Assembly: GCA_037308085.1 (NCBI GenBank)
Contig: CP147779.1
Location: 1,600,001-1,664,000 of the forward strand
DNA from: Promethearchaeati archaeon SRVP18_Atabeyarchaeia-1
GTDB lineage: Archaea > Asgardarchaeota > Atabeyarchaeia > Atabeyarchaeales > Atabeyarchaeaceae
DNA: 64,000 nt
Direction: 5' to 3'
A program made the position numbers and the translations under genes. Below, one piece after another: positions 42,650 to 63,447 of this stretch; within the stretch, counting starts at the first letter, position 1; each line of letters opens with the position of its first letter. Under the pieces are notes generated by a model that saw only the letters and a program-made list of their open reading frames with translations, was not told the origin of the DNA and did no database searches.

Positions 42650-43043
42650 ATAAAGGAGCCTGAATTCTCATAAGATGGAAGATAAGGCGACCCCAGCCGG
42701 GACCGCAGGTGCGCATTCAAGCCTGAAGCCCAATAGGTTTCAACTAGGGTTGCCTGTGGCCGAGCGTGCTTCTTGAATGGTGCTGTGCCGACGGATTGCA
42801 CGATATACAGGAGACCAAGGAAAGCCGAAGGTTAGGTTGGGCGTTTGTCTGAGTGGTCTGCGACATCGATTGTGGGATCATTAACTCTCAGGTGATGAGT
42901 ACACTTCATGCTTGGGATCAGAATTATGCAACCTTCAATATGACTACGTGATTGCAGAGACAGTGTGTATTAATATAGGATTGTCAAGTCATACCATATT
43001 GATCAATGCAGTTGGAGCAACTCCTGGAGGCTGGAAACGGGAA

Positions 43044-43526: not shown

Positions 43527-43567
43527 TTAGTGCAATCACATATGACGCCTCACAAGACAGAGAGATT

Positions 43568-44277: not shown

Positions 44278-44457
44278 ATCAACTATCAGTTTCCAAAACC
44301 ATATGGTTTTATAGAGAGTTACTCAGTTTTTTTGCTGAGACCGCTTGACATGGTTTTGTCCTCTCTTAGTAGATGTACTTGTTTGGCTTCTCTCCTTTCT
44401 TGACGCATTCTCGGCTTGATGTGTTCCACCCGATCTCGCCGCTCTGTAGCTTCTTGA

Positions 44458-44640
44458 ACCTGTCCACGGCGAAGGCGAACTGGGTCGGCTACTCCTACTT
44501 CAAGTTCCCTGCATGTGGCTTTGAGGCAAACCGTGACCGCGTGGCGAGCCTCAACATCGCCCTCAGGGCGGTCCAAGCACAAGACACACCAAGCGCCGAC
44601 AGGATGGGCCAGTTTCCTGGGGGGAGCGCCTCCGTCAGTA
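44458..44640 (+). pseudogene. tnpB: tnpB C-terminal relic 2 (5' half of the interrupted target)
   Basis: TCPR/AKANWVGYSYFKFPACGFEANRDRVASLNIALRA...GQFPGGSASVS. Confidence 0.88.
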
Positions 44641-44680
44641 AGGTAAACAATAAAGTTACTTCGCAAGTAGTCGCATTAGA

Positions 44681-44741
44681 GGTACACTCATCTAGCAGTT
44701 ATCAGTTATAGCGTGATAGCGAACTGCTAGACAAGTGTACC
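44681..44741 (-). repeat. 61-bp imperfect palindrome, copy A
   Basis: GGTACACT/AGTGTACC and TCTAGCAGTT/AACTGCTAGA stems. Confidence 0.9.
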
Positions 44742-44946
44742 CAATATGTCAATAAACCCGCCTTACCTTAAAAAACAATAAGGAATCGATCTCCTCACTT
44801 GCTCGATCTCTTGTGGGCTTTTATCTTCTGTCAATCTCTAAGACTAGCCGTCTCGACAAACCACGTAAGAGGTCTTGCTAGGACTCCTGACTTAAACGGG
44901 CGTGCGCGTCCGACCTCACACATTCTCCGCAGCGCATTAGGGAGCG

Positions 44947-46098
44947 CTATTTTTCAAATCTAGCGAGCAGTTCCTTTAATCCTACATTATAGCCTTGTCT
45001 GAAATCGGCGTACTCCTTGTCTGCAATGAGTGGGGGTATCTTGCATTTTTGAAGCAAAACAGGTAATACGACCACAGATTTCATCTGCAGTTCTTTCATC
45101 AATGCCGCATTAAGCTCTTTCCTAACCCAATTGGATCTGACGGATGCTTTTGAAAGAACAGTAATAAAGTAATCATTCTTTTCGATTCCTTCGTTTATCT
45201 TATCAAGTAGTGAGTCTCCTACTCTTATTTCCCATTTGTCAATCCAGATCTTTATGTTAGCGCGCTCTAAGTCTTCTACTAAACGATCAACGAATATTGA
45301 GTCCCGATGGGAATAGCATATGAACACGTGATCTGACCGCTTTAAATCATTCTTACTAGGCATACTCTTTGCCCCCAACAACCTGTCTGCTTCAGCGTTC
45401 CTCTCTCGCTCGGCACGCCGATCATCGAGAATGGCTTCTCTAAATCCTCTTGCTTTTTCTTCCAAGTCCTCTAGACCAACTACCCTAACTCTTTCATTTT
45501 TGCGAAAATAGGACATAAGGACGTCAAGGTATGGCTCTCCGTCGTCAAACACGATTTCGTCGGTCATTAGATGTGCTTTAACTTTGGACTCTCTCAATAG
45601 TATTTTCCAATGATTTCGCTTGAACATTCTAAATAGCTTCTCTACTTCATTTCTCCTATTTTGCTTTCTCTCCGACTCCTTTTTCATACGATAATTCCTG
45701 ACGTACGGTAAAATGAGATACACGAATATCGCTGGTAACACCCACCAAACTATCGCAATCGGTCCTAAGATGAAGAAAACAGAGATAGCTGACGATGATG
45801 GCAAAATGTAGCTAGGCAAGAAATATGGTAGATACAATATGAAAAGTGAGCCAACTGTTAAGACACCACCAACAATACCCCAATACAGCAGTAACTCATT
45901 ATCCCAGTCGTGGATGAGAGTAGGCACAAATAATATTGGCAAAAACACCCACCAAACTATTGTAATCGTTCCTAGAATGAAGAAAGCATCGATAGAGAAA
46001 AATGACGGTACAAACCATATGAAACATGAGACAAAAATCAAGCCAATGCCGATAGTAAGCCAATACTTGAGAAAATCACCCCAATCATACCAGCTCAA
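44947..46098 (-). CDS. Multi-TM protein with C-terminal TIR domain
   Basis: Duplicated TM unit (FFILG.I.IVWWV), VFICYSHRD, SNWVRKELNAA. Confidence 0.9.
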   Translation of the reverse strand: MSWYDWGDFLKYWLTIGIGLIFVSCFIWFVPSFFSIDAFFILGTITIVWWVFLPILFVPTLIHDWDNELLLYWGIVGGVLTVGSLFILYLPYFLPSYILPSSSAISVFFILGPIAIVWWVLPAIFVYLILPYVRNYRMKKESERKQNRRNEVEKLFRMFKRNHWKILLRESKVKAHLMTDEIVFDDGEPYLDVLMSYFRKNERVRVVGLEDLEEKARGFREAILDDRRAERERNAEADRLLGAKSMPSKNDLKRSDHVFICYSHRDSIFVDRLVEDLERANIKIWIDKWEIRVGDSLLDKINEGIEKNDYFITVLSKASVRSNWVRKELNAALMKELQMKSVVVLPVLLQKCKIPPLIADKEYADFRQGYNVGLKELLARFEK

Positions 46099-46323
46099 AC
46101 TATCAGCTCCTATTGCGTCTCAAAATGATCACGCAGCGCGCGCTAGTAGTGATCGTCCAGTGTGCTAAAATTGCTAAAGATCATGAATCAATCAAAGAAG
46201 TTAAAGAGTTAAAGCCAAACTTCTTTGACTATCTCTCATGAGTTCCCCCAAACTCTTCTTTGGCGAGCGCCCTTTATCTTTTCCGATGTCAGAACGAATC
46301 AGTGTCTCTTAGAGAAAGTACTA

Positions 46324-46917
46324 TCATCGTCTCCAGTAGATATCCCACTTTTTCCTCTGACTGGAATAATTATTTCGCATGCGCCCATTGTTGTGTCTCC
46401 TTACGTTAGCCCAAACGAAAGTAAGATAGTTTTTCATCCATTCTTCTCTTGCAACTCTTCTTTCGATGAAGTCTCCCGACAACTCATCGTCATACAATAC
46501 GAACATATATGCGTGGCGTAAATCTGTCTTGAGCGTTCTTAATTTCTCAAGGTCTTTATTGATGCTAGGAATTTGTAAGCCGTCTAATTGGCACTTCAAT
46601 TCGATGGCGTCTACAAGTTGTGTACCTTTATAAATCGTGATATCTGGCTTTACAAATGTATCTTCCTTGGTCGGTCCATGGCTCAATTCAATGAGCGGTT
46701 GTGACCTTAGAAACCATCGTTCGCTTCTTTCATTTTCGAAATACTTTCTTAGCCAATAATAAGCTGCAGCTTGCATATCAAACTCTGAATAAACGAAATT
46801 TGAATACCAATCCTCAACAAGCTTCTCAGGGAGATCATTCAATATCCATGAATCAGCCTTCGATTCTCCTGGTGATTCTCTTACCTTCCTCAACTCATTA
46901 GCACTCATTTCATTCAC
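46324..46917 (-). CDS. PD-(D/E)XK nuclease-like protein
   Basis: SEFDMQ, KPDITI, AIELK, DLEKL. Confidence 0.75.
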   Translation of the reverse strand: MNEMSANELRKVRESPGESKADSWILNDLPEKLVEDWYSNFVYSEFDMQAAAYYWLRKYFENERSERWFLRSQPLIELSHGPTKEDTFVKPDITIYKGTQLVDAIELKCQLDGLQIPSINKDLEKLRTLKTDLRHAYMFVLYDDELSGDFIERRVAREEWMKNYLTFVWANVRRHNNGRMRNNYSSQRKKWDIYWRR

Positions 46918-46961
46918 CTACTTCTCCTCACAGGCTTTCCGTGCCTCCCGCACCCAATACG

Positions 46962-47131
46962 ATAACCACGCTCTACCTTAAAAATAGTAAAGGAATTGAT
47001 CCCCTTACTTCCCGCTCGACCTCTATCAAGTGCTATGGCTTCTGATACCTATATCTGAAAAGGGGTGTCTCAACTTTGTGACCGAAATGTAGACGGCTCA
47101 TCTTTTCGATAGCATCCTTCATGTCTTCGTC
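46962..47131. repeat. 170-bp direct repeat, copy 1 (promoter-like spacer + 3' end of the 47033 gene)
   Basis: Near-identical to 50586-50755; diverged partial copy at ~44765-44810. Confidence 0.92.
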
Positions 47132-47884
47132 AATATCGGTGGAGAAGAATGCCTTATGATCGTAGCCCCAATGTGTTTTGGTTTCTGGTATGAGCACTTC
47201 TTGACTCCACAGATATTTTACGCTCGGATAATGAACCACGTTCAGCAGGAAAGCTCCTGCCAACGCATTGAGAGCATTGTCTACGTTTGCTTTCTCAATG
47301 GAAGAAGACCATTCGTGCTTTAGATCATTGTACGCCATCCACCAATCAGGAACAATATGCGCTCCGTACTTACTCCGATCGAACTTCTCGAATGGTCTGA
47401 GTGGTATCTCTCCATACCAACTTGACTTCGCCACCAACTCTGCTCCACTATTAGATGATAGTTCATAGATCGATTCAAAGGCATCTCTCGCAACGAAAAT
47501 ACTGTAATCCTTCTCTACCTTCTTACCGTTCTTGTCGGTCTCCCACCATGCCTTTTCAATGGCATCTCTGCTTTTGTCGAATTTCATGAAGTCAGGAAAG
47601 TCTCTCATCTGCTTAAAGACATCATCCATGTATCCGCATACCCTCAAAATCAAGTCGAGTAGCTTAGGTGAGAAACCACATCTGTTTCTATCTGCATAGG
47701 GGACATACTCAAAGAACCTGATCAGATCAGTCTCGTAGTATCCATATAATGTCCAACAGAGACCTTTCTCAAAGGCAGTTCCACTTTGGTTTCTCGGCAG
47801 GATCATTCCCCTCTCCGCTTGTCGATCACAACTATCATGACTCTGCCCATACGAAGAAGACGAGAGCGTACTTGAATCCATCAT
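47033..47884 (-). CDS. Hypothetical protein, possibly HEPN-like
   Basis: FSPKLLDLILRVC, WWMAYNDLKH, ANVDNALNAL. Confidence 0.7.
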   Translation of the reverse strand: MMDSSTLSSSSYGQSHDSCDRQAERGMILPRNQSGTAFEKGLCWTLYGYYETDLIRFFEYVPYADRNRCGFSPKLLDLILRVCGYMDDVFKQMRDFPDFMKFDKSRDAIEKAWWETDKNGKKVEKDYSIFVARDAFESIYELSSNSGAELVAKSSWYGEIPLRPFEKFDRSKYGAHIVPDWWMAYNDLKHEWSSSIEKANVDNALNALAGAFLLNVVHYPSVKYLWSQEVLIPETKTHWGYDHKAFFSTDIDEDMKDAIEKMSRLHFGHKVETPLFRYRYQKP

Positions 47885-48348
47885 TTCTTTTGGGTGTATA
47901 CTATCTTTTGTATTGTGTTACAACTCTCCTCAAGATTCTTCTCGTCATCGCGGATAATATCTTCATAAAACTGAATGTCTCTTCTTACTTTCTTAAGTGT
48001 ATTCTCGTCATTTTGTCTGTGTAAGCAATATTCCTTACCCCTGTTCTTACAGCCACCAGATGTATACGCGTACCGAGTACACTCCCCCTTTTTTGAGCAA
48101 TCAGCTAGCAACGATACGAAAAATCTCTCAGAATCCTTCCGCTCGTCCCTGAGAATCCTGTTCTTGATCAGCCTATCGTGTATGCCATTTATCCTTTCGA
48201 GCATGATATTCAAGTTCTTTCTGGTAGCTCTATCCTTAATCACAGTAAGAAGTGTATTCAAAAGCTTAACTGTATCACCCGCTATTTCAGACATTTCCCT
48301 CTGCCTCCCTCGCTCCCTATTCCTCAAGGAATCGGCACGTAATCCCAA
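47881..48348 (-). CDS. Hypothetical protein with Cys cluster and coiled coil
   Basis: CSKKGEC...GC...YC; overlaps both neighbours. Confidence 0.6.
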   Translation of the reverse strand: MGLRADSLRNRERGRQREMSEIAGDTVKLLNTLLTVIKDRATRKNLNIMLERINGIHDRLIKNRILRDERKDSERFFVSLLADCSKKGECTRYAYTSGGCKNRGKEYCLHRQNDENTLKKVRRDIQFYEDIIRDDEKNLEESCNTIQKIVYTQKK

Positions 48349-50462
48349 TAACCGATCTGATCCAGACGCTTAGATACCTCGTCTTTCATCCCTTTCCTAC
48401 ACTTTGCGGTATCTACCTTCGATTGTCTGATTAACTCAACGACTTCGCCTATAGTATGACCGTCATAGACAAGGCAGTCCTTACATAAATTGAACAGGTA
48501 CTCAACGCCCTTGGTGAGACTTTCGCCACCGAACCTGAAAACCTTGTTAGTGCCAAAGAAGCCGATCTTCTCCTTGGCGTAGTTGGCGAATAAGGCGTGG
48601 AGAGCCGAATAGGCTAAGATCTCCAGCGTTTCCCGTCTTGAAGTGTCTGGGAGATGAACATAGGCATTGTCGAAATAAATAGGGTGCAGTATATCAGTCA
48701 TAGATGTCCAAAACGCACGAGCGCCAACAGACACGCTCCAGAGCCCATAAAACAATTCATCTGGCACGTTTGGGATTCCCACTACCTTCTTTACATTTTC
48801 GGGTACGACTTCAGAGCCTCCTTTTGCTACATCCAAATGAAATACCTTCGGTGCTGGCGCGTTAAATGTGTCGCAATGCTGAACAGCAATCTCTCCTCTT
48901 ATCACTTCCCTGTTGTCGTATGCCCATCCGTCCTTCAATAGAGGCATCTTCTTGAAGACGGTTTTTTTCGTACCGCCACTCTTGTCTACGAATTCAAAAC
49001 TCAGATCAAGATGTTTGGAATTTGTGTTCGGCGCGTACTCCCAGATTGTAAAAGCAATAGGTTTGATCTTGCTAATGTCGTGGAAGTAGTTGCCCGCAAA
49101 AATGTAACCCTTTAGGAACCTGAAGTCCTTCAGCAACGCGGTCAAGAGTTTCATATAGCGTTCTCTGCCACAGAACAAACCGAATGGTGAGAAGAAAGCC
49201 AAACAACAGGTCTCATGAGCCTTGGCGATCTCGATGAGCCTTCCGACGATGGGCAAGAACAGGTCGCCTTTCCCGTACTTCTCCAATACGCGAGGATACT
49301 CCTGCCCAACCACTGTCGATGACTGCTTTCTTGATAACTTCCCGTTCATTTCCCCCTTCTTTGACACCAACACGTTAGTTGACGTTGTCCCAAATGGTGG
49401 ATTTGTGTAGAGCAGTAACTTCTTGTCAGCAGGTACATCCCAAGCCTTAATCAGAACATCGGTTAAAGTATTGACCACATCAAGTGTGGTGAACTTCCAC
49501 TCATACCCGCTAAATATCTTCTTGCAGTTTTCTATGTGGCTACTGCTAATATCATTCATGGCTCCCTTGATTTGTGGAACGATGTTCTTTATCAATGATC
49601 CTCCGCCAACACATGGTTCAACAACATAATCTGGTTTAGTCAATCCCAGTATTTCATCAGCTACCTTGTCGCCGATCTCCTCCTCAGTCCAGAAAACCCC
49701 ATATTCACGCCTCTTCTTTCGAGATAGAAGACGATCCAACTCGTGGAGAATTTCTGCAAGGTCTTCGTGCTTAACACGCAGAGACTCAAACCAAGAAGCG
49801 TCAATCGGCTTTATCGCTAGGTGCTTGGGTTTGTGAGTCCCTCCGTACTCTGTCGGTAGTTCGCTTAGCTTTCTCTCGTCACTGCGTTCGTTAGTGAATC
49901 TCTCTGGCTTGTCCATGTTCACAAGCCAACCGTCTTTGTTAACTTTGATAATGTCATCCTCGCCTACTCCGTCAAGCCAGTTGACCAAATGATCAAGTTC
50001 TATTCTATACTTGTCAGTCATCAACTTGATTGAGTTTATGTTGTCCTTATTTATGAAGAGAAATTTTGATGTCGGCAATTCCAGTTCTATGATCTTGTCA
50101 GGCTCGCCTAAGATCTTCTCGGCTTGCTCGTTTAGTCCTGGTTTGTCCGCTTCGTTTGATTCGAATGCCAGCCTTGGATCAAAACTCATGACAAAAGTCG
50201 ATATTCTCTCAAAAGAAGGTCGTGAATACAACTTGACAACTCTATTATCTGCGACGCCAAGATATTTCGCGTCCTTGATTCCTTCCTTCGCTATTGCGTG
50301 AAGTAACTGGGCGGGCGCAAAATGGTCAGGCTTGACCTCTATATAGACTCTGTTCTTCTCATCTGCGATATCGCAAAAGCTGTCTATGAACTTGAACTTG
50401 AAGCCGAGTGTAGTTTTGTTCAAGTAGTCTTTTATCTTCAAGGACAACGCTTTTTCACTCAT
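48324..50462 (-). CDS. Fused endonuclease/N6-adenine methyltransferase (type IIG-like)
   Basis: N-terminal CDIAD..VYIEVK; VVEPCVGGG (motif I), YTNPPF (motif IV). Confidence 0.8.
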   Translation of the reverse strand: MSEKALSLKIKDYLNKTTLGFKFKFIDSFCDIADEKNRVYIEVKPDHFAPAQLLHAIAKEGIKDAKYLGVADNRVVKLYSRPSFERISTFVMSFDPRLAFESNEADKPGLNEQAEKILGEPDKIIELELPTSKFLFINKDNINSIKLMTDKYRIELDHLVNWLDGVGEDDIIKVNKDGWLVNMDKPERFTNERSDERKLSELPTEYGGTHKPKHLAIKPIDASWFESLRVKHEDLAEILHELDRLLSRKKRREYGVFWTEEEIGDKVADEILGLTKPDYVVEPCVGGGSLIKNIVPQIKGAMNDISSSHIENCKKIFSGYEWKFTTLDVVNTLTDVLIKAWDVPADKKLLLYTNPPFGTTSTNVLVSKKGEMNGKLSRKQSSTVVGQEYPRVLEKYGKGDLFLPIVGRLIEIAKAHETCCLAFFSPFGLFCGRERYMKLLTALLKDFRFLKGYIFAGNYFHDISKIKPIAFTIWEYAPNTNSKHLDLSFEFVDKSGGTKKTVFKKMPLLKDGWAYDNREVIRGEIAVQHCDTFNAPAPKVFHLDVAKGGSEVVPENVKKVVGIPNVPDELFYGLWSVSVGARAFWTSMTDILHPIYFDNAYVHLPDTSRRETLEILAYSALHALFANYAKEKIGFFGTNKVFRFGGESLTKGVEYLFNLCKDCLVYDGHTIGEVVELIRQSKVDTAKCRKGMKDEVSKRLDQIGYWDYVPIP

Positions 50463-50515
50463 AGTCTTCTCCCCTCCCCACAACCTTGAAGGAATTTACA
50501 GGCACACACAACAAA

Positions 50516-50576
50516 GGTACACCCATCTAGCAGGTATCAGTTAAAGCGTGATAGCGACCTACTAGACAATTATACC
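50516..50576 (-). repeat. 61-bp imperfect palindrome, copy B
   Basis: Collinear with 44681-44741, with a compensatory stem change. Confidence 0.9.
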
Positions 50577-50585
50577 CATATGACC

Positions 50586-50755
50586 ATAACCACACTCTAC
50601 CTTAAAAATAGTAAAGGAATTGATCCCCTTACTTCCCGCTCGACCTCTATCAAGTGCTATGGCTTCTGATACCTATATCTGAAAAGGGGTGTCTCAACTT
50701 TGTGACGGAAACGTAGACGACTCATCTATTCGACGGCATCCTTCATGTCTTCATC
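50586..50755. repeat. 170-bp direct repeat, copy 2 (contains orphan 3' tail of the 47033 gene, 50657-50755)
   Basis: Near-identical to 46962-47131. Confidence 0.92.
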
Positions 50756-51059
50756 TTCCATATGTCGCTATCACGCTCCTGCTAGAAAAACCGTCTTTCC
50801 CTGAGAAAAAGGAGACCGCTGAAGGTTCCAAGGCTTCAAGATACTTCCTGCAATGTACTCAGGTTTGCTGAATGCAACTTATCTGTGCTGGGAGTGGTAA
50901 TTTTTGCTGTTGCTTGTTTTATTGCTTCGACTGCCAGCGGAGGCAAATATGAACGCGTTGGTGAACGAAGGGCCAGACGTTGGATGAAAGAGTGTTCTTG
51001 AATTTCAACGTTAAAGGCACATTTCTAGGTTCTTGAGGGTGATCGGTGATGCCTCTTTT

Positions 51060-52154
51060 TCAAAGAGAGGATCTGAGCAACTTTGAGATCTTTTCGATCT
51101 TGTCTTGTGTGCCGGTCGATGGAATCTTCTCCCATCCGCCTTTTGTTTCGAAGGTGCTTTCGCCGGGCTTCTTCCTCCACACTTCGAGAAGATCTTTTAT
51201 GCTGTCGGGATTATAGTTCCCGTATCTCTTGGATAGTTCAGGTATGACTTTTGGCAAGACTCTCAAGAAGGATCGAAGCGCGATCGCGGTCTTGATGCTG
51301 TAGTCATGATTGTTCCACGCGTGTGGAAAAACCTCTTCGGCTATGACTTTGAAGTACTGAACCAGAAAATTGCCCAAGTATGGCTTTATCGAAGACCAGC
51401 TGCTTGGAGCCTTAGCCATTTCAGCAACAAGCTGTTTGAACTCTGCACCTAGGGCCGATAGGCTTACCCATCCCTTTTCTTCACCGGTTATCTTGACTTT
51501 CTGATATAATGGCGAGTTCGACTCGAGTGCAAGAGGCTTCAGGTAATCATGTGCTGGTATGATCCACTTTAGTTCTTGCACCAAGTTCTCATAGTCTTTC
51601 ATTCTGGGTGCCAATTCGAAATATAGCGAGGTTGGTATCCTAGTTTGCTTCGAATTTATCATCACAAATAGTGCGGCCATATCTTCGTCTCTCAGGCTAT
51701 CCATAATGATTGTGGGAACAGTTATGTCAAATCTCGACTTATTCTTTTTCAGAAGGTTTTGTAGTGCAACGAATCTGTGCTGGCCGTCAAGGACCTCGAA
51801 CAGGTATTTCTTATTCGGCAGCGTTAATTCATTCTTGTCGAACTCTAGCTCTTGATGAGTGACCAATATCAGCGTGCCCGGAAAAGCGGGGATAGGTGCG
51901 CCCTTCGAACATTCCTGGAAGTATCTCATCAGTTCTTTTATTTTCTTTGCCTTTATGGGTCTCTGAAATGCTTTTGAACTTTTCATTATACGCGACCAGT
52001 CTATTACGCCCTCTTTTCTCTTCTTGACTTCGAATCCCAAAGATTCGTAGGAGATCATCTGTAATTTCACTAGGTTGTCCAACCGGGATGCTTTAATCGG
52101 CGAGAAGTAAAGGTATTTCCCAAATTGTTCTATTTTAAAAGCTGGTTCTTTCAT
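51060..52154 (-). CDS. DGQHR domain protein (DndB/ParB-like superfamily)
   Basis: FQR, VLDGQHR, LFVMINSKQ. Confidence 0.9.
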   Translation of the reverse strand: MKEPAFKIEQFGKYLYFSPIKASRLDNLVKLQMISYESLGFEVKKRKEGVIDWSRIMKSSKAFQRPIKAKKIKELMRYFQECSKGAPIPAFPGTLILVTHQELEFDKNELTLPNKKYLFEVLDGQHRFVALQNLLKKNKSRFDITVPTIIMDSLRDEDMAALFVMINSKQTRIPTSLYFELAPRMKDYENLVQELKWIIPAHDYLKPLALESNSPLYQKVKITGEEKGWVSLSALGAEFKQLVAEMAKAPSSWSSIKPYLGNFLVQYFKVIAEEVFPHAWNNHDYSIKTAIALRSFLRVLPKVIPELSKRYGNYNPDSIKDLLEVWRKKPGESTFETKGGWEKIPSTGTQDKIEKISKLLRSSL

Positions 52155-52695
52155 CTATTCTTATCACCCAGCCCGGGGGAATCTGAATGGTACCGCCAAT
52201 AAGATCATTACAGGTTTTACACGCGGTGGCAAGATTCTGCGGATCAGACTTGCCGTGAAGTGCTCGTGGAACTATGTGGTGGATTTGTAGATCATTCTCA
52301 CTTCCACAGTATCTGCATCTATGGTTGTCTCTCTGAAGAATTGAATTCTTTGTGATGATGTCAAAGTCCTCAGAGCCGGCAAAAATTATCTTCCAGATTA
52401 GATGCAGAATCTCGATTTCGTAGTCATCTAATATGAGGTAGTCGATGCCAGTTCTACGCTTCAATTCCTCTCGAAAACTCTTCAGGCTTTCGTCTTTCGG
52501 TCCCAGTCTTGTCAAGAACAGCAACCTTTGTTTCTCTTTCTCACCTCTTAGCCAAAGTCTGATGCTTCTTACTTTCTGAAGCCTGATATATCTCAGCACT
52601 TCAAGAAGTTCTGGTATACTGTCCTCAGGGTTACCCCATCTCTTGAGCAGGTCTGCGATCTCCTCCTCTTTCGAGGTGCTTCCCTCCATGTCCAT
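52135..52695 (-). CDS. HNH endonuclease
   Basis: RDNHRCRYCG..LQIHHIVP..G....NLATACKTCN. Confidence 0.9.
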   Translation of the reverse strand: MDMEGSTSKEEEIADLLKRWGNPEDSIPELLEVLRYIRLQKVRSIRLWLRGEKEKQRLLFLTRLGPKDESLKSFREELKRRTGIDYLILDDYEIEILHLIWKIIFAGSEDFDIITKNSILQRDNHRCRYCGSENDLQIHHIVPRALHGKSDPQNLATACKTCNDLIGGTIQIPPGWVIRIDERTSF

Positions 52696-53112
52696 CGCGC
52701 TTGACTCAATAAGTCGTGTTAGGCAAAGAAGGTATAAAAGTGTTAAGATGTCGAGGTGTCAACTGGAGATGTGGAGGTGAAAGACAGCATTGATGCGATT
52801 CGCAACCTAGATTCGAGGATGGCAAACTTCCAAATCAAGTATAAGCCATTATCATTCACAGAAGGGCAAGAACTAGTTTCAAAAGCCTTGAACGTTTTGT
52901 CGTCGAATAAGGAACCTGATAACAGCTAGAATACATCAAACCTATTGGCGCTTTGGCTAATAGTTTAGTCGCATTCCTAACAGTCGTCACACTTGCCAGG
53001 TTCATGCTTGAGACGCTTAACCTCGCTTCTCTCATTATCACCAAGTATGCATGCCCACACAGAAGTGTTCTCCCCCCCAGAAACACCGATTGAACTTGAA
53101 TCCGGCGCTGTT

Positions 53113-54303: not shown

Positions 54304-55501
54304 CTGCCAGCCTCCAAATCTCTGTTAGGGTAACTATGAGACTAGTTACCGCACCTTGCCAATCGAGTTTCGAACACGCATATGATCCTCTAGACCAGTA
54401 CCGTCCCGCCCCACAAGAGATTCCTCTCACTCAGCAATATACGAGTCCAATATATATAGTTGGGTAGAGCGCCAAGAAAACTGAAGACACGTCAGAACAA
54501 CGAGTAAGACTTACCTCCTCCATCAACCTTCTTGATTTCGCGTCTGAGTCGCTTTACCTATTTTGAGGGTCTTATCAGCTTAGATGCCTTTGGCGGTTAT
54601 CTCTGAAAGGTTGAAAGGTTTGATCATCCATATTCGATCCTGCCTATCTGCTCACATGCGTCTCCATCTCAGCATCCATCTAATTTCTATTTGAATTCAA
54701 CAATCCAGTCTACCCGTTTCCGACCAGAGAACCAAATTCACTTATAAAAGCGCTAATATAAGCTACATAGCTATAGGCATCCGTTTAGGTAGGCATTTCT
54801 GACCCCAACAGCCTACCCTTCTCACGTCAAAAACCCTTCCTAATTAGCCAAAACAATTCAAATCAATTCGACTATTATTCCTCACTCTGACCCGAATAAT
54901 CCTGATTTATCTTCATTCGATGCAGGATAATAACCTAATTCATGTTCTTCTCTTGATTTCAAGACAATATCCTCTGCCTCTGGTCTCTCCAAATTCAATT
55001 TGCCACGGGCAAATGGACAGCTTCATCTGTGGATAGACTCTCCCCTTCATGCTTCGCTCTCCACTTCGAGACCAGACATCTTGATGCCCAACAATATTCA
55101 CTCATGTGAATTCGCCTAGAATGATCGCGTTGCTGCAGTGGCACAGAAAGCGCTGGATAGAATCGCTTAAAGAAGCTGGGAATCGAGGAACTCCGCTGAA
55201 GTTTAAGATCTCCTGAAACAGAATGAGAGGGGCTGTAGCTAAGCCTTCGACCATCTTCCTCTTCTTTCGTTTCTGTTCAGCTCAACTGCCTTTCTCAAGT
55301 CCTCCACGAAGTCGCTCCACTCAAATCCCATGCAGGTCCCTGTTTCTCTGGTGCGCTCCCTATACAATGTTATAATTGGTGATGATGCATAATTGGGGAG
55401 ATTTATGGATGTCGCAATGCCTCCACAAGGGATATATCACACGCCCGACGACTAGAGAAGCGAATATTCCAGCTGAGAAATGAGGGGGAACGGCCGACAG
55501 C

Positions 55502-55597
55502 ATGAGTGCAGGAAATGATGATTTCGAGAAGGGCCGATGCTGGGCACAATACACATTCATGGAAGACGAGCTGCTCGACTTCATGTGTGAACCATAG
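55502..55597 (+). pseudogene. 5' fragment homologous to the 47033-47884 gene
   Basis: FEKGRCWAQYTFMEDELLDFM versus FEKGLCWTLYGYYETDLIRFF. Confidence 0.6.
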
Positions 55598-55617
55598 CTC
55601 GTGGAGGGGTTCCATAA

Positions 55618-56871
55618 TTGCCGAGTACTGAGACAGGTGTGCACGAGGCCGCGAATAGGAGCAAAATAACCAGAATCAAGACAGAAGATGAAGAGAAGGA
55701 GGGGAACGCACTCGAACACGCCCCGAAGGGTCGTCGGGCTCGGCGAGAAAAGAAGCCAAGCGAAGACGAAAACAGAGAGGCATTAAGAAGGCAGACCACT
55801 CAACTGGGCGAAACTGATTCAGATGCAAGACTAGATGAGTTTCTGCTGAAGAATAAGGAAAAGGCCGATTTGACGTTTGCACCCTATGCGATCGGTCTTC
55901 TGATACTCGCACTACTGGTAGCTGATTTGCCTTTTCCACTACCGTACTTGGCTGTTATCGGATACGTTCCGATATTCTATGTGTTGAGGAGAATTGTTCT
56001 ATCGCAGATCGTTAAGACGAGATTGGAGAAGTATTATAATCTAGTAGCTGATGTTTTGTATACGCAATCCGGCGGAAAGCAGATCTTCTGGACCCAGGTA
56101 GTTCTCAAGCTATCAACTCCCGAAGAGATTCTGCCAGATAGCAAACTGTTAGAACTTCTGAAGTCGTCTAGCACACGTGCCTCAAGATCTGAAGCAGGAC
56201 AATTCGCAGAGATTTACGAACGAATTAGAGATGGTAGAGTGCGATCTCTCTTTGCGGAGACGCCTGACCACAAATATCACGTGCTTTTCGTCGAGTACGC
56301 TAATGGCAATGACCATCCCTCTCCGATCAGTGCCAAGACAAGATTTGGAAGGACTTCTGTCAACGCTTTTCGCAAGAACTTGTGGTATGTAGGGAACTAT
56401 CGTCTTTATGATATCCCTGAGTCGAATAGCATCGGAGACCAAGTGCTCGTTTTCTCGGGTCGGAAAGATGCTTCTCCCTTAAGACTAGTGATGCCAAACC
56501 TAGTTGAGACTTTGTTCATGATCGCTAATCTCAACCGGATTAGGCAGGAGAAAAGTCTCGCGCTCTTGAAAGCCAAGAACGAGTCGCTTCGCGCCGCGGT
56601 TGAGGCGCTGGAAGAGCATCAGAAGGCGATAGATGCTATATTGAGTAGTTCGAGAAAGGTTTCACGAGTACTGGACGAGAGGCTCCTCACGAAGATAGAC
56701 ACTTCACCGACACGAGCAGAACTTGAAGTTAAGCCAGTTGGTAGATTCGATATGCTTGTGAGCCTAGTCAAACGTTCATCTAAGTGGTTCTTTCTCACTA
56801 TTGCGGGATTGATCATCGTAATAGTATTCGGACCATATTTGTCTTCGCTTATTTCTCATTGGTTAACATGA
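55618..56871 (+). CDS. Hypothetical membrane protein with coiled coil
   Basis: Two N-proximal TM, coiled coil, C-terminal TM. Confidence 0.7.
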   Translation: MPSTETGVHEAANRSKITRIKTEDEEKEGNALEHAPKGRRARREKKPSEDENREALRRQTTQLGETDSDARLDEFLLKNKEKADLTFAPYAIGLLILALLVADLPFPLPYLAVIGYVPIFYVLRRIVLSQIVKTRLEKYYNLVADVLYTQSGGKQIFWTQVVLKLSTPEEILPDSKLLELLKSSSTRASRSEAGQFAEIYERIRDGRVRSLFAETPDHKYHVLFVEYANGNDHPSPISAKTRFGRTSVNAFRKNLWYVGNYRLYDIPESNSIGDQVLVFSGRKDASPLRLVMPNLVETLFMIANLNRIRQEKSLALLKAKNESLRAAVEALEEHQKAIDAILSSSRKVSRVLDERLLTKIDTSPTRAELEVKPVGRFDMLVSLVKRSSKWFFLTIAGLIIVIVFGPYLSSLISHWLT

Positions 56872-57045
56872 CTCACACACAAGTTTCCCCATCTTTGGAT
56901 TCTCCTCGACGGTCTCGAAAGGTTTCCCGGATATCCTAGCGCCGTACCGTGCTGTGGCGAAGTCCTAGGTTTGAAAATAGACGAGAATACCTAGGAAAGG
57001 AGGAGGCTTCAAATAGCCAGAGTCCTGAGGAGCGAGAAAGTATGC

Positions 57046-57408
57046 ATGGAGGGATATCAGATGTCTATCTTTGAGGATATGACTAACGCTGAAAGGGAAG
57101 TTGCAGGGTTCCTCTCAGATCTTCGCATCTGGTGGACGTTCCAACAACCAGTCTGCGTGGAAGACGAGAAAAGCAGGCCAAGGATTTGGAGCCCAGACTT
57201 CTACCTATCTGAGCTCGGGCTGTACATTGAAGTTTGCGGTTCTGAGCGCTTTGACTACTCCTACCGCGAGAAAATCTATAAGGCAAACAGGATACCTGTG
57301 ATCTTTGTACACCTTTACAAGGAAGGGGCAAAGTGGTCCTACTTTCTGATCCAGCGGATCAAGGAAATCCATGCCATGCGGTCAGGGATCATCGATAAAT
57401 TGGTCTGA
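57046..57408 (+). CDS. Small PD-(D/E)XK nuclease-like protein
   Basis: AEREVA, SPDFYL..LGLYIEVCG. Confidence 0.75.
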   Translation: MEGYQMSIFEDMTNAEREVAGFLSDLRIWWTFQQPVCVEDEKSRPRIWSPDFYLSELGLYIEVCGSERFDYSYREKIYKANRIPVIFVHLYKEGAKWSYFLIQRIKEIHAMRSGIIDKLV

Positions 57409-57561
57409 GCGTGCGCTGAGAAAGAGGGTGGTTGGTTCTTTTGCTGTTGACATTTTCGCGCAGCTAAATAACGTTTACTTCATGTCCTCGCGAACAGTTA
57501 GAAGCCTCTAGCGATTCAGCTCCGTCACCATTTCCCCTCTGGAAAATAGTGACACTGTGCA

Positions 57562-58086
57562 CTAGCGCGCGTGCCAGTTGGTCAACTCTCTCAACTTCCG
57601 TCGATAAGTCTTCTGGTGACCATGAGATGGGAATGGCAGAGCTTCCTCGTTTCGAATCCTTTTGTCGAGACCGGCTTCTTCAATTGCGTCTCTCACAGGG
57701 GCAAATATGTTAGATTTCACGATAAGAATACTTTCAGGATCTAGCTCCCGTGTGTCAGCGACAAGTCTAGGTATTCCCTCGATGATAGCGCGTCTTCTCT
57801 CCATCGGCTTAAGCTTGTTGACGGGCTTATAGCTTACATCGACGACGAAAAAACCTCGCGACTGAAACTCTTTCAGGCAAGGCCTCTTGTCGAGACCCGT
57901 TGGCATTTTCTTATTTTCGGGGAAAATTCCAAGGGCTTTCATAGTCTCTCTGAAAAGGCTGTCCGCTCCTGCTGTCTGATCGGAATAGAAATATCCTCCA
58001 CAGTAGGGAGGAGACTCGGCGATGAGTAGAATCTTCACCCGTCCGTGCGGCTTATACTTGTCCCTTGCGAGAATGTACTCACGCAT
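57562..58086 (-). CDS. Uracil-DNA-glycosylase-like superfamily protein
   Basis: YKP..VKILLIAESPP, LPFPSHGHQ; likely start at ATG 58086. Confidence 0.75.
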   Translation of the reverse strand: MREYILARDKYKPHGRVKILLIAESPPYCGGYFYSDQTAGADSLFRETMKALGIFPENKKMPTGLDKRPCLKEFQSRGFFVVDVSYKPVNKLKPMERRRAIIEGIPRLVADTRELDPESILIVKSNIFAPVRDAIEEAGLDKRIRNEEALPFPSHGHQKTYRRKLRELTNWHAR

Positions 58087-58187
58087 AACGTTTATGGTAT
58101 TCGTTCTAACTGAAATAATTGACGCTCTATGCTTTGGTTCTGCAGAAATCGGGTGCGCGCGAACCGGTTGGAAGGGAAGAACTCGAG

Positions 58188-59114
58188 TTACCGAAAGATT
58201 CCATTTTCTCTTAGCTTCTTGTTCATGCACCACTCTCTGAAGACATCGATTTCCCAAGGCAGTGGCAATGGATGCCCTGAGAAAGTACGGTATTCCCTGA
58301 TCCCATTAATATATTCGATTCTGGCCTCTATCCTATTTGCCGGAATCGCGCAATTAGAAAGCAGACTCTGGTCCACTCTGTGGTCCCTTGCTTCCAACTT
58401 GGAATCAGCACCAGCCCAGTTGTCGAACCAAGTTCGTTCAACCCTAACAGCATAGACAACTGGGTAGTGTGTCTTGACCATCTTACTATACTTTCCGTGT
58501 ATCGGCGGCAATCCGTTTAATAGCCCTTCGAGATACTTGTCATCGTTGGCTCTCTTCAGCCATTCCTGAAGTTGTCTGTAATTGAGAACTGCCGGATCTG
58601 AAGAGTACCTTTTCTGAAGTTCCTCCTCATGCTTAAGGTAGTAGGCGATCTTAGGTGGTATAGATGAGAGCTTGCGCAGCAGTTCTTGCTTGTATGCCAA
58701 GCAAGTGTTCTCATTGAGTACAAGATCCTTGAAATCCTCTACTGCAGTTATGATGCTGTCTATCGTTTCTCCTCCACGGTTCCTTGCATAGTTCCTAGCT
58801 CTCCAGAAGCTTTGATCAAAGCTTGCATATTTCCGCCCCGGGTATTGGTCTATCACGCCCAACGTGTAAGGGCGCAACACTGAGTATCCCGAACTCTCTG
58901 TGTAGCCGATGGACTCATATGCGTTGCATACTGTCTTGACATCGTTCATATCATAAGGTGTATCGTTCGCAACCCATCCCCGTTTCTCTATCTTCTCGAC
59001 GAAGACGCTACTTGTCCCGTGATAGACTATCTTGGGATCGTCGTACATCTCTTTCTCTAGAGGATAGACGATACAATTGGGGTCATCGATCCGCAATACC
59101 ATAATCTTCTTCAA
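58188..59114 (-). CDS. Hypothetical protein, possible ADP-ribosyltransferase fold
   Basis: VYHGTS..IEKRG, ARNYA, VVYAV, IPANRI. Confidence 0.55.
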   Translation of the reverse strand: MKKIMVLRIDDPNCIVYPLEKEMYDDPKIVYHGTSSVFVEKIEKRGWVANDTPYDMNDVKTVCNAYESIGYTESSGYSVLRPYTLGVIDQYPGRKYASFDQSFWRARNYARNRGGETIDSIITAVEDFKDLVLNENTCLAYKQELLRKLSSIPPKIAYYLKHEEELQKRYSSDPAVLNYRQLQEWLKRANDDKYLEGLLNGLPPIHGKYSKMVKTHYPVVYAVRVERTWFDNWAGADSKLEARDHRVDQSLLSNCAIPANRIEARIEYINGIREYRTFSGHPLPLPWEIDVFREWCMNKKLRENGIFR

Positions 59115-59261
59115 GGTCGTATCAGTCCTGCTTCTGCCGATTCACATAAAGTGGGATAGCCGAAAGCCCAGCTCTTGCAGGGGCATGAGCAACTTCTCTT
59201 GCTCCAGCTTTCGGTCTCTTGGTAGAGAAGCACGAATCCTTCCTGGTTCTCCTGAGCTCAG

Positions 59262-60128
59262 TCATGTCTGCTTTGCCTTCTCATCATCATTATCAGAAAT
59301 CGATGAAGAGAAGTCATTGATGGCTTTGTCGATCACGCTGCAGACTTCGTCGAAGGTCTCAACGATCCCCATGCTTTCATTGTATTCACCCGGCTTAACC
59401 TCCAAATCAGGATACCTCGTGTAGGATTCATGGGGAAAGGTAATCACAGACAGCAAAAGGAGCAGTACACCACCTAGCATGTCCTTGATAAGTCGATACG
59501 ACCAGTCGGTCTCCTTTCTTTGAAGAGACTTCTCTCTGAAGATGCGAAGTGTCTTTGACTGCTCTTCATCACCAGGATATCTTACTTCTGACAGTAATGT
59601 CGTGAGCTGCGGAAGCACCTTACCCATCACCTCAGGCACTTCACTTGACAGCTGCGTACAAACATCCAGCAACCTCTTAATCTCCTTTCCAGGCAACCTA
59701 GCAAATTGGCTCGACCTGCTCGTAACCAAATCTTCGAGTACGAGAGGCCCTCGAGTACCCGAAAACACTAGCTCGGTCACATCGGCGAGTTTTCTCCCGA
59801 TCTCCTTGTCTAATATCTTTGAAAAAGCGAGCGGAGAAAGATGACCAACATCCCGAAGTTCGCTCTTGTCGATGAACAAGGATTCAAGTGCCCAAGCTTT
59901 CGCAGCTTTTTCAACACTCTGCTGAACGTGGTACACTGCCAGATTGTAGATACTATTAGCGCGGAGCAATTTCGCAGATTCGAGGTCTTGTCGAGCAAGA
60001 TCTAGTAAGCTCCGAATCAACCCAAGCTCATCTGAAGATCTGACTCTTATAAAATCGTAGAGATCCTTGATTACAGGGGAACTCAATACCTTAGCGATCA
60101 TAGCAAACAACTTATCTTGAGATATCAT
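59262..60128 (-). CDS. HEPN domain protein
   Basis: ARQDLESAKLL..AVYHVQQSVEKAAKA, GH, TRYPD. Confidence 0.85.
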   Translation of the reverse strand: MISQDKLFAMIAKVLSSPVIKDLYDFIRVRSSDELGLIRSLLDLARQDLESAKLLRANSIYNLAVYHVQQSVEKAAKAWALESLFIDKSELRDVGHLSPLAFSKILDKEIGRKLADVTELVFSGTRGPLVLEDLVTSRSSQFARLPGKEIKRLLDVCTQLSSEVPEVMGKVLPQLTTLLSEVRYPGDEEQSKTLRIFREKSLQRKETDWSYRLIKDMLGGVLLLLLSVITFPHESYTRYPDLEVKPGEYNESMGIVETFDEVCSVIDKAINDFSSSISDNDDEKAKQT

Positions 60129-60149
60129 TGAGACGAGTCCCCCTCAATA

Positions 60150-61412
60150 TTACCTTGGATAATCCCAGGAAGTCATCCGCTTATTCATCTCATCCAGCTC
60201 AAGCCGAGTCGCAATTCTGTCAGTGGCATTAGCCCGCAAATACACGCCTCTGTCTTTAACAACATAGGGCCTATCTTCGCCCTTCTCCACACGCATGACG
60301 ATTATCTCTTTCCCATCGATCCGAGTTCTCTTTAAGTCGTAGCGAACAGCCGGTTCACAGTGACTCCTGAGAATCTTCGATATTGAATCTTCGTAATCTC
60401 TATTCCGCAAACCTACAACCACAGCATTATCATCTACACCCAGCAGAATCACACCGCCTTTGGTATTGGCAAAAGCGGTCACACTCTCAACGAACTCCTC
60501 AGACTGACCAATGTCAGCCTTGAATTCAACCCCCTCCGCCTCACCACTCTTTATCCATTCTCTTATCTCATACTGCGGGGTTTCGACGACGAATCCCTTC
60601 GGCGAGGGACCCCAATTCGAGTAGTATCGCCTAACGTCAAGAACCTCATTATCCTTGCCCGAAAGAAGTGCAAGATGCATGATGTCGGGTTTGAAGCCGA
60701 TTGAAGCACTCCCCGCGCCATCAGCGAGATCAATGTCAACCGACTTCATCTCGTCTCCCGACGCGCAATAGATCTTACCGACCATGTCTGCTGGATCCAC
60801 TTCCCTAGCCTCAACCGTCAACTTCACAGCATCTGAGGAGATAACAACTTCACGTATTCGCGCGCCATACCTCGGGAGGCAGAAGACCATGCCATTGTGA
60901 TTAGTATAGCGTCCTAAATCGATGCCAGTGTGTACCTTGATAGCTGTCACAAGATCAGGGAAGAATGGCAGATTCTTCGAAAGCAAGATATTAATCCGCG
61001 GGGACGGAAGGCTAGGGCTCCTGTATTGATATCTGTCGAAATACCAGCCGACATTAAGGTAGTCGTTGCCGCTATCGAACGATTCTCCGTTGGTTAGGCT
61101 TTCACCAACAACACTCAAGTCCCACTTGCCAAGTCTGATCAACTTCTCGCCCTTCTGGGGAAGTTCATTGAGTAACCCGCGTAGCTCCTTACAAGAAATG
61201 AGCATCTCAAACAACAGGAAATCGTCGTACAAAATGTCGGGGCGATGTTCATGGTTGTTGGACCTATGAAGTGGAAGGAACCTTGTGAGAGCATTCACCC
61301 AAGTCTCCCCCATCCTGCATGCAACACCCTTCACCAGAACCTGTCCATACGTATTCTCCCGCTTAATGATCTTCAAAATCATATCTTCCAATACTTTCTC
61401 ATGCGCAGACAT
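60150..61412 (-). CDS. Protein with C-terminal Schlafen/AlbA_2 domain
   Basis: GEAEGVEFK, AFANTKGGVILLGVDD, YLR. Confidence 0.88.
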   Translation of the reverse strand: MSAHEKVLEDMILKIIKRENTYGQVLVKGVACRMGETWVNALTRFLPLHRSNNHEHRPDILYDDFLLFEMLISCKELRGLLNELPQKGEKLIRLGKWDLSVVGESLTNGESFDSGNDYLNVGWYFDRYQYRSPSLPSPRINILLSKNLPFFPDLVTAIKVHTGIDLGRYTNHNGMVFCLPRYGARIREVVISSDAVKLTVEAREVDPADMVGKIYCASGDEMKSVDIDLADGAGSASIGFKPDIMHLALLSGKDNEVLDVRRYYSNWGPSPKGFVVETPQYEIREWIKSGEAEGVEFKADIGQSEEFVESVTAFANTKGGVILLGVDDNAVVVGLRNRDYEDSISKILRSHCEPAVRYDLKRTRIDGKEIIVMRVEKGEDRPYVVKDRGVYLRANATDRIATRLELDEMNKRMTSWDYPR

Positions 61413-61528
61413 CTTGGTTCACCCCGTATCATGCCCCTCAGATGCGTCGCACCAAACCACTAACAAAAGCTATTCCAAGTGATATTAAAGATTCTGCGCG
61501 CGAAGATTGAAGCATCGGTTAGAAAGAC

Positions 61529-61630
61529 GAAAAGGAAGGGGGTTGGCTTTTAGCTACTAACATCCTAGAGGCTAAGTATCATTAGGAACACAAAAATGTC
61601 AACAACTAGAAAACCATCCCCCCTCTTTTC
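61529..61630. repeat. Imperfect ~25-bp inverted repeat
   Basis: GAAAAGGAAGGGGGTTGGCTTTTAG ... CTAGAAAACCATCCCCCCTCTTTTC. Confidence 0.55.
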
Positions 61631-61977
61631 TTGGTCTCAAATCCCCTAGCGCGCATAAGGTGTGAATTGTTCATTTTTATTACTGGAACGCCTTTATGGT
61701 GTGGGTAAGTTCTGGATGGTGCATTTTGTGGGTTTTTATGGTTGTGCATGCCTATTTGTGTTGAAGATGCTATGACATGACCCGCAAATACGCAATGTCT
61801 CTGTTCTAGGGAAGGTATGGACGGTGATTCTGAAAAATGCTTCTTGTCATACCTTTAGGATCATAGTCGCCACATACACAGCTACTACAAGCCTTTGCGC
61901 CCTTAGACTATCCTTCAAATGAGTCCACACAGGTTTTGATATACCGTTACCCTTGCTCTGCTAAATTTCCTTTCATT

Positions 61978-63321
61978 CTATTTCTCCACCTGATTCTCTT
62001 CGCTATCTTTGTCTTCCTTACGTGTCAGACCGATCACTGTCTTCAATGCCTTCTCCAACTCTTCGATCCTCTTCTCCATATTCTGAATAGCCCTGGCCTG
62101 AGTGTCGTTTCTGACTCTGAGTTCCAATACTTCATCCTTATCTTCAGACTTAACTACATCTCCGAGTCTCTTATTCGCAGATTCCAAAGCAACTGTCCTA
62201 CCAACCAGGTCGGAGACTGTATCTAGTAGTCTCTGATTCTCTTCCCTGATCTCCGCAACATTATTGTTAAGACCATTGCCATTGCCACTGCTAATCGAAA
62301 GATAAGGCTCATACTTTAGATATTGTTGTTTGACCTCTTCCGACTGATTCTCCCTGTACGCTTTTCCAAGGCTGCCAATAGCATGACCTAGCCAGAATTC
62401 TATGATCGAGTCATTGCATCCATTCTCGGCCAATATCTTCGAAAAACTTGATCTGAGTGCATGCGGGGTGACATCACTGATAGGCTCATCGCCTTTGATC
62501 AATCCTGATCTCTTCGCAACATCCCTAACCATTACTTCTACCGCGCTCCGGCTCAGCGGCTCAAAGGCCTGACCCCTGCGACCGTACTCCTTGAAGAATA
62601 AAGGATCGCTTCTTCCCAATTCAATGCCTTGAGCATTCTTCAGGTCTTCAAGGTATGTTTTCAGCGCTGATATTGCATCGAAACCCAGATACGTGTTAAA
62701 GCGCGTGTGGGTCTTCTTGCGAAATAGATCAAGTCTCAAAGGATGCTCACTCTCTTCCAGGCCTCTGGCGACATCTCCATAGCTCAATCCCGTAAGAGTA
62801 GAAACATCGATCCCACTCTGATACATCACTAAGATCATGACCCTGTCCCGGATCGACAGGCAGTGTTCAAGCATTTTCTTAACATCTCTAGGGATGAGTT
62901 TTCTTCTCCTGAATTTTATCTCACTCTCTCCAAGGTTCATTCTCACTCTCACGTCAAACGTGGCGTAGAAGCTGCGGATCGCCATCACTGCCGACCTAGA
63001 AGACTCTTCGGTATGATTCTTCTTCATGTGATTAAGAAAACCTATCAGGGATATTGACACTACATCTCTTCGCTCTCTAACATCCTTCCCCTGATCCTCA
63101 ATCGCTTCGTCTATGACCTGCTTGGGAGTCTTCCTGATGTATTCGAGGTATTGCCTTAGTCTAAGCAGATAGTTACGGCGCGTACGCTCTTTCGATTGCT
63201 TCATTATCCACCTGTTAACATAAGCGTCCTTCAGTAATAGCTCATTTACCCCCGTTTCAACCGTCAATACTGCCTGCCCACACTCCTGGGAGTCGCTCAT
63301 TTCCCTAGGGATATATGGCAC
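61978..63321 (-). CDS. Tyrosine recombinase/integrase with C-terminal coiled coil
   Basis: RDRVMILVMYQSGID, RKKT, HALR, LGH, AY. Confidence 0.92.
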   Translation of the reverse strand: MPYIPREMSDSQECGQAVLTVETGVNELLLKDAYVNRWIMKQSKERTRRNYLLRLRQYLEYIRKTPKQVIDEAIEDQGKDVRERRDVVSISLIGFLNHMKKNHTEESSRSAVMAIRSFYATFDVRVRMNLGESEIKFRRRKLIPRDVKKMLEHCLSIRDRVMILVMYQSGIDVSTLTGLSYGDVARGLEESEHPLRLDLFRKKTHTRFNTYLGFDAISALKTYLEDLKNAQGIELGRSDPLFFKEYGRRGQAFEPLSRSAVEVMVRDVAKRSGLIKGDEPISDVTPHALRSSFSKILAENGCNDSIIEFWLGHAIGSLGKAYRENQSEEVKQQYLKYEPYLSISSGNGNGLNNNVAEIREENQRLLDTVSDLVGRTVALESANKRLGDVVKSEDKDEVLELRVRNDTQARAIQNMEKRIEELEKALKTVIGLTRKEDKDSEENQVEK

Positions 63322-63351
63322 CTACTTGATATAAGTATTTCTCTGTATATA

Positions 63352-63447
63352 CGTCAGTAGGCGCGTTTGGCAAGGTGAAGGGTTTGAAAGGTCGCGCCAG
63401 ACAACCCCGAGTTGCAAGCCCACAAGCTTAAGCGGTGGGTAACTGAC
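63352..63447 (+). mobile_element. 3' half of the interrupted tnpB tail/omegaRNA and IS200/IS605 right end
   Basis: VSRRVWQGEGFERSRQTTPSCKPTSLSGG*; CAAG + hairpin CCCAC..GTGGG + TGAC end. Confidence 0.85.

Follow-up and report, generated by a model that had tools for sequence, protein, structure and literature searches.

An 18.7-kb island of an Atabeyarchaeia genome and related mobile pieces appear to have been inserted by a tyrosine integrase at one palindrome in the tail of a multicopy tnpB gene

Integrases usually dock in single-copy conserved host genes, chiefly tRNA genes. The guide RNA of TnpB (omegaRNA), which is encoded by transposons of another kind, overlaps the 3' end of tnpB and extends to the right end of the insertion sequence (IS). 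Integration into a chromosomal repeat has been described for phiRv1 of Mycobacterium tuberculosis, whose target attachment site (attB) lies in the repeated element REP13E12 (PMC9317374). For the archaeon studied here, Valentin-Alvarado et al. (2024) reported 14 integrated elements, two of them "defense islands," and found that the tyrosine integrases of Atabeyarchaeia elements are related to those of Bathyarchaeia (PMC11529989); neither that paper nor its preprint mentions tnpB, and the motif reported there is a different, AT-rich 11-mer. No integrase targeting tnpB or its RNA was found in our search of the literature. Here we describe an 18.7-kb island in a 64,000-nt stretch of the Promethearchaeati archaeon SRVP18_Atabeyarchaeia-1 genome (contig CP147779.1, positions 1,600,001 to 1,664,000; hereafter, the window). 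Judged from the sequence, this island and at least 12 related mobile pieces were inserted by a tyrosine integrase at one palindrome in the tail of a multicopy tnpB gene. The genome is that of "Ca. Atabeyarchaeum deiterrae" group 1, and the published Yucahu-i signature, a pair of AATTAACTTAT, is present in it exactly 10,867 bp apart. The island in the window may already be among the defense islands listed in the earlier study.

The island is flanked by two copies of the 8-mer CGTCAGTA, at the positions that a first-pass annotation of the window had given for them (Table 1). Some 43 copies are expected on each strand of the 2.81-Mb genome, which has 38 and 29; the 8-mer alone is therefore uninformative, and the weight is carried by the joined flanks. 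Deletion of the intervening 18,711 bp yielded a contiguous tnpB 3' end, and the joined sequence (up to 44640, then from 63360) aligned without a break to four other copies in the genome over 185 to 260 nt at 89 to 92% identity (E values down to 1e-103). Two of the copies matching the join are full-length tnpB genes (~410 amino acids [aa]), and their C-terminal frame is nearly residue-identical to that of the joined window. The join also restored a 20-nt palindrome, GCGCCT-CCGTCAGT-AGGCGC, which occurs in the genome three times exactly and five times with one or two mismatches and is absent from a reversed control. Alignment to intact tnpB copies, which carry both halves contiguously, thus bore out the earlier claim that removal of ~18.7 kb restores one reading frame and an inverted repeat. 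Of the extent proposed in that claim, 44458 to 63447, the right end was correct, 63447 being the point where all copies diverge and metagenome contigs branch; the start was not, as homology of the left half begins at 44472. With an empty site reconstructed precisely and a core common to both junctions, the island is probably a site-specific integrative element.

The same tail is occupied repeatedly. Mapping of the tnpB 3' segment across the genome, with tnpB left half, core, and foreign DNA in that order defined as a left junction and foreign DNA, core, and tnpB right half as a right junction, revealed six intact sites, eight left junctions, eight right junctions, and one junction of a right end with a left end, so that more than half of the target copies are occupied. 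These 17 junctions, together with three in a second genus, are all broken at one 6-bp core, as expected of independent insertions, and they support the earlier suggestion of many landing pads. Paired junctions delimit five complete elements, namely, the 18.7-kb island, a 26.4-kb sister island, and three smaller elements that lack an integrase (2.3, 0.9, and 0.6 kb). These three carry one or two accessory genes each (DUF4760, membrane protein, glyoxalase-like), and a fourth integrase-less element carries a PIN protein gene. The sister island, which sits in a different tnpB copy, contains the only close paralogue of the integrase in the genome (91% identity), and this paralogue abuts the tnpB right half at the same core and in the same orientation, as had been anticipated for close homologues. 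The DNA common to the two islands is limited to the integrase with the right end (1378 nt, 90%) and a 560-bp segment; their other cargo is unrelated. The left-end module of the window island also bounds two other elements (genome positions 831988 and 1709111).

The right end of the sister island belongs to the family of the window island and its left end to another family, a combination that exchange at the shared core would yield. Stacking of elements at the shared core does happen: near genome position 2770460 (2768300 to 2771500, minus strand), a right end of one family is fused via CGTCAGGA to a left end of another, and a 1.95-kb PIN-carrying element and a normal right junction follow, forming a tandem array at one tnpB tail.

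Similar junctions were observed beyond this genome. In the complete genome of a second genus from the same family, one site is intact and three right junctions break at this core; two of the three involve end families that are also present in the genome of the window. At positions 2631090 to 2632687 of the second genome, a glyoxalase-like cassette gene with 91% identity between the two genera lies beside the same right junction, with the left end and the tnpB left half missing. A search of two related genomes with the short core pattern returned matches at control level beyond the known copies. We also compared the island with metagenomes, using the assembled contigs of four runs from two studies. 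In contigs of both independent studies, further end variants branch exactly at 44640 and 63352. No circle junction was found in these contigs, and the exact 22-nt pattern of the predicted junction of attP, the attachment site of the free element, had no match in metagenome_contigs or viral_contigs. One contig skips from 44640 to 63361, with 29 nt on one side and 90% likeness, which makes it indistinguishable from an intact paralogue; likewise, the 29-nt pattern of the target right half matched one contig in metagenome_contigs, an intact tnpB that is uninformative.

Most of the recognizable element ends carry a CCTACT-type motif (GCCTACT/AGTAGGC) 23 to 26 nt from the core, inverted between the two ends, and a CCTACT-type motif, read on the bottom strand, also forms the right arm of attB, where it lies directly against the core. 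In the 0.6-kb cassette, this end motif has matched extensions on both sides (CCTACTA-TTAAG). The identity between the left and right junctions (attL and attR) spans 8 to 12 bp, differing by element, and two element families have variant last core bases (CGTCAGGA and CGTCAGTT). Given these variant cores, exchange would be confined to CGTCAG, the middle 6 bp of the 8-bp spacer that separates the inverted arms. Such an arrangement is that of Cre/loxP and is typical for tyrosine recombinases, and we infer a Cre/loxP-like geometry at the tnpB core.

The integrase gene lies at the right end of the island and points inward. Its product matches the tyrosine recombinase family PF00589 of Pfam over residues 146 to 327 (E value, 2.1e-17; 63.9 bits versus a cut-off of 27.1), which places it among the tyrosine recombinases. 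A start at the ATG at 63300 is more likely than one at the GTG at 63321; the core, described earlier as about 30 bp from the integrase start, is 31 nt from the GTG and 52 nt from this first ATG. As the open reading frame (ORF) is unbroken and the core lies 31 to 52 nt outside it, the integrase is not of the SSV type, in which attP lies within the gene and the gene is split on integration. An AlphaFold model (mean predicted local distance difference test score, 80) has the two-domain fold, core-binding plus catalytic, and its top Foldseek matches are XerA, archaeal Xer, IntI, lambda Int, and Cre (E values down to 5e-11). Residues H287-x-x-R290, H313, Y322, and K203 are unchanged across 29 integrase relatives. 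At the position of the catalytic Arg I of XerA/XerD, all 29 aligned relatives have an aspartate (Asp172; G-I-D-V-S-T-L versus G-L-R-V-S-E-L), and R201, an extra invariant arginine preceding the hairpin lysine, might serve as its substitute. At its C terminus, the protein is extended by ~100 residues that are predicted to form long helices, possibly a coiled coil.

The site lies where the guide RNA of TnpB would be expected. An intact tnpB copy encodes a Cas12f1-like TNB domain (1.9e-19), which identifies its product as a TnpB; the OrfB_IS605 match is weak and under the cut-off. The core falls within the last 30 tnpB codons, 88 nt short of the IS right end. Among copies from three genomes, the ~135 nt from GGGCCAG to the right end are nearly nucleotide-invariant, whereas the coding stretch just upstream varies freely. 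In the RNAalifold consensus, the palindrome forms a hairpin nested in an outer helix and followed by two more stem-loops, and 95% of the cells are paired versus 29 to 48% with the partners slid. Covariation is modest, with compensatory changes limited to one 3-bp helix, and an Rfam search of two intact copies and the whole window returned no relevant family. Based on position, nucleotide conservation, and this modest covariation, the palindrome likely lies within the omegaRNA scaffold, and insertion into such a site would part the scaffold from the guide. The first-pass annotation had proposed that the integrase targets the guide-RNA scaffold; insertion in the tnpB tail by a narrow integrase clade is supported by our findings, and the omegaRNA component is probable on the grounds just given. 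Loss of TnpB guidance, also proposed there, would be a consequence of such a split; the tnpB copy in the window is already a relic (Table 1).

We consider integrase-mediated, site-specific insertion of the island into the tnpB palindrome the best explanation and assign it a probability of roughly 85%. The junctions, their recurrence, the common integrase, and the common end motifs are direct observations. Under this explanation, the island would have been inserted by its own tyrosine recombinase into GCGCCT-C/CGTCAG/T-AGGCGC (slashes mark the presumed cuts) within the terminal ~100 nt of a tnpB gene of the IS200/IS605 family, a stretch that would also encode the omegaRNA scaffold. The integrase would bind the two inverted arms, whose GCCTACT/AGTAGGC motif also lies inside both element ends, and would cut 6 bp apart in the 8-bp spacer; strand exchange with the attP of the element would leave the core duplicated at attL and attR, with the orientation set by the asymmetry of the core. 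As the IS is present in many copies, a large number of these could be occupied by this one integrase clade and by integrase-less elements, the latter presumably mobilized in trans, and elements could line up in tandem and trade halves through the core that they have in common. Each insertion would cut the upstream scaffold off from both the right end and the guide next to it, and an occupied copy would no longer make a complete guide RNA.

Several points weigh against this explanation or narrow it. With an aspartate at Arg I, the motif by itself is no warrant that the integrase is active. The target hairpin is invariant and shows no covariation, so that any role of it in the RNA is putative. 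Several junctions are unpaired and require later rearrangements, and in the second genus neither a close integrase nor recognizable left junctions were found. The integrase family is large and extends to Bathyarchaeia and Methanomethylicales metagenome genomes, and yet none of 17 loci (14 from genomes and 3 from metagenomes) encoding homologues with 31 to 43% identity has a tnpB tail at the integrase; in one of them a tRNA-Val gene lies ~110 bp upstream, and in another a tRNA-Thr gene lies ~450 bp upstream. The specificity is therefore that of a narrow clade known in one genome, and the earlier attribution of tnpB targeting to an integrase family holds for the 91% paralogue and not for these more distant homologues.

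A wider proposal, which we advance as speculative, is that the tnpB-tail palindrome is a docking platform dispersed by the IS, like an integron spread over IS copies. The Asp-for-Arg-I integrase clade would insert, stack, exchange, and excise both autonomous defense islands and integrase-less single-gene cassettes there and may act on a folded strand; occupied copies would lose their guide RNA, and the cargo could travel by the IS machinery.

Folding of the target can also be given the central role, the same integrase reading the same site as a single-stranded hairpin, in an integron-like cassette platform on the IS. Integron integrases recognize attC through a folded single-stranded hairpin, and CTX phage uses XerCD in the same way. 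IS200/IS605 elements move as single strands, integrase-less single-gene elements (glyoxalase-like, membrane protein, DUF4760, PIN) occupy the same site, a right end, core, and left end are joined directly as stacking would have it, and some elements have matched two-sided motif extensions. However, inverted arms around a 6- to 8-bp spacer make an ordinary duplex site of any tyrosine recombinase, the ends of the sister island come from two families and lack matched extensions, there is no fixed integrase-plus-attI platform, and the best fold match is XerA, with the integron integrase one among many similar matches. We therefore regard hairpin recognition as improbable.

Pieces of one IS on both sides and a true IS right end would also be seen if the island were cargo of a composite IS605-type transposon, with the tnpB halves mobile and the integrase a passenger, and, according to a review, TnpB occurs within elements that have other recombinases (PMC13565253). 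Yet the left piece is 5'-truncated, with no homology to the tnpB 5' region upstream, the element ends recur in several tnpB copies whose flanks differ, and uninterrupted intact copies exist. Duplication of the core is, moreover, unlike IS200/IS605 transposition, and we give this composite origin very little credence. Although an 8-bp direct repeat on both sides of the island could have arisen by target-site duplication through a transposase that strongly prefers certain targets, searches of the island ORFs against Pfam and PADLOC identified neither a transposase nor a second recombinase, no transposase was detected in the sister island either, the repeat ranges from 8 to 12 bp by element and can differ in its last base, and the integrase is the sole gene common to the two large islands, so we set this idea aside as the least credible.

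The host tnpB copies themselves are heterogeneous. Several of the tnpB "relics" hosting insertions are internal-deletion mini-copies that keep the IS 5' and 3' ends (genome positions 831719 to 831987 and 2213708 to 2214018). An interpretation of the tnpB flanks of the integrase-less elements as 5' truncations was rejected, since at least two are mini-copies of this kind that keep the 5' end. The match of the copy hosting the 0.9-kb cassette reaches the start of the 700-nt reference segment. In another copy (~2605585, minus strand), an internal deletion joins the N-terminal "GAYQRL" coding region to the palindrome; as CAGCGCCTCC is common to both places, this deletion may be a microhomology or pseudo-site event.

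By domain matches, the cargo of the island is defense-like, with TIR, DndB/DpdB-like plus HNH, HEPN, and Schlafen/AlbA proteins and a weak methyltransferase match (Table 1). Contig depth of the 560-bp ORF-poor segment shared with the sister island is raised in the metagenome runs, and no relevant Rfam family was found in that segment. The island has three copies of a noncoding module of 120 to 240 bp that contains a strong inverted repeat (GGTACAC..CTAGCAG..CTGCTAG..GTGTACC); these repeats were considered as cassette boundaries and rejected, the internal copies being without an att core. Upstream of the island lies an older, second tnpB left half with its own neighbors, and at window positions 42324 to 44471 two elements are thus piled up in two tnpB relics.

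Table 1. Features of the island, its junctions, and related loci. Positions are those of the window unless marked as genome; identities of tnpB parts refer to a 700-nt 3' segment of an intact tnpB.
Feature	Position	Strand	Remarks
Older second tnpB left half, decayed core	42324-42481	+	Joined to a different left-end family at 42482-42685
TIR protein after older left half	42912-43526		
PIN protein after older left half	43885-44277		
tnpB relic left half, attL	44472-44640	+	~57 last codons before the break; 89% identical to reference positions 301-469
Left arm GCGCCT of attL	44626-44631	+	
Core CGTCAGTA of attL	44633-44640	+	
Integrated island	44641-63351		18,711 bp; GC 45.2% vs 49.6% for the genome
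Left-end module	44641-44820	+	AGTAGTC motif at 44666-44672, 25 nt off the core
Noncoding inverted-repeat module	44680-44800, 46951-47131, 50515-50755		Each copy directly 3' of a minus-strand gene
TIR-domain protein, defense-like cargo	44947-46098	-	Pfam TIR_2, 1.7e-31; PADLOC TIR models
719-aa protein, weak methyltransferase-like match	48324-50483	-	PADLOC MTase_II, 1.3e-5; no Pfam match
DndB/DpdB-like protein	51060-52154	-	Pfam DndB, 6.7e-7; PADLOC DpdB, 2.7e-13
HNH endonuclease	52135-52695	-	Pfam HNH, 9.3e-13
ORF-poor segment, 560 bp	54560-55118		92.5% identical to part of the 26.4-kb sister island
HEPN protein	59262-60128	-	
Schlafen/AlbA_2 protein	60150-61412	-	
Tyrosine integrase	61978-63321	-	447 aa from GTG; reads inward from the right end
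Right end	63321-63351	+	CCTACT motif at 63321-63326, 25 nt off the core, then an AT-rich stretch
attR	63352-63447	+	Core, right arm, remaining tnpB tail, and IS right end; 98% identical to reference positions 462-557
Core CGTCAGTA of attR	63352-63359	+	
Right arm AGGCGC of attR	63359-63364	+	
IS right-end sequence TAACTGAC	Finishing at 63447	+	Divergence point of copies; loose ends of contigs
Noncoding inverted-repeat module, further copies	Genome 831988-832168, 1709111-1709292		
Sister island	Genome 1529226-1555631		26.4 kb; integrase at equal core distance, same orientation, different tnpB copy

The docking site described here is a palindrome in another selfish element, in the stretch expected to be the scaffold of the TnpB guide RNA. 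By using it, integrative elements would gain many harmless landing sites that spread by themselves, and the IS copies would be disarmed as they are used, if the guide-RNA reading is true. Islands and mini-cassettes that have one 6-bp core in common can be stacked and can trade halves, a possible contribution to the diversification of Asgard defense islands. Further, a compact natural 20-bp attB with its cognate integrase is a candidate archaeal genetic tool, and the integrase offers a test case for a tyrosine recombinase family without the canonical first arginine.

Among known systems, the islands and proviruses in tRNA genes (lambda/P4-type and archaeal pNOB8-type) are alike in having a terminal integrase gene, a short core duplicated at attL and attR, a dyad-symmetric target in a gene for a structured RNA (probable in the case of tnpB), and defense-type cargo. 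As in the pNOB8-type elements, the integrase gene is left intact on integration, and the present island is therefore of the nonsplitting kind. The differences lie in the target, a selfish multicopy IS tail here versus a single-copy essential gene there, in that the interrupted RNA or gene is not restored by insertion here, and in the occupation of more than half of the target copies, with integrase-less mini-elements sharing the site. The nearest verified precedent is phiRv1, whose attB likewise lies within a chromosomal repeat. The recombinase of phiRv1 is, however, a serine recombinase, and REP13E12 is not a transposon with an RNA-guided nuclease. For its integration, phiRv1 can use any of several REP13E12 copies. 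Integrons, including archaeal integrons and integrase-less cassette arrays, resemble our elements in having a tyrosine recombinase together with small promoter-poor single-gene units that lack one of their own; in both, the units are stacked in tandem at a short core common to them and end in imperfect inverted motifs. An integron has its integrase beside a fixed attI and an array of attC cassettes, whereas here the integrases lie inside large mobile islands, the docking sites are dispersed with the IS, and attC-type structures or IntI-specific insertion are not among the features observed. Against these systems, the element type itself is known, and the differences are the tail of a multicopy IS gene as the target, the company of integrase-less cassettes, and tandem stacking, the last two being reminiscent of integrons.

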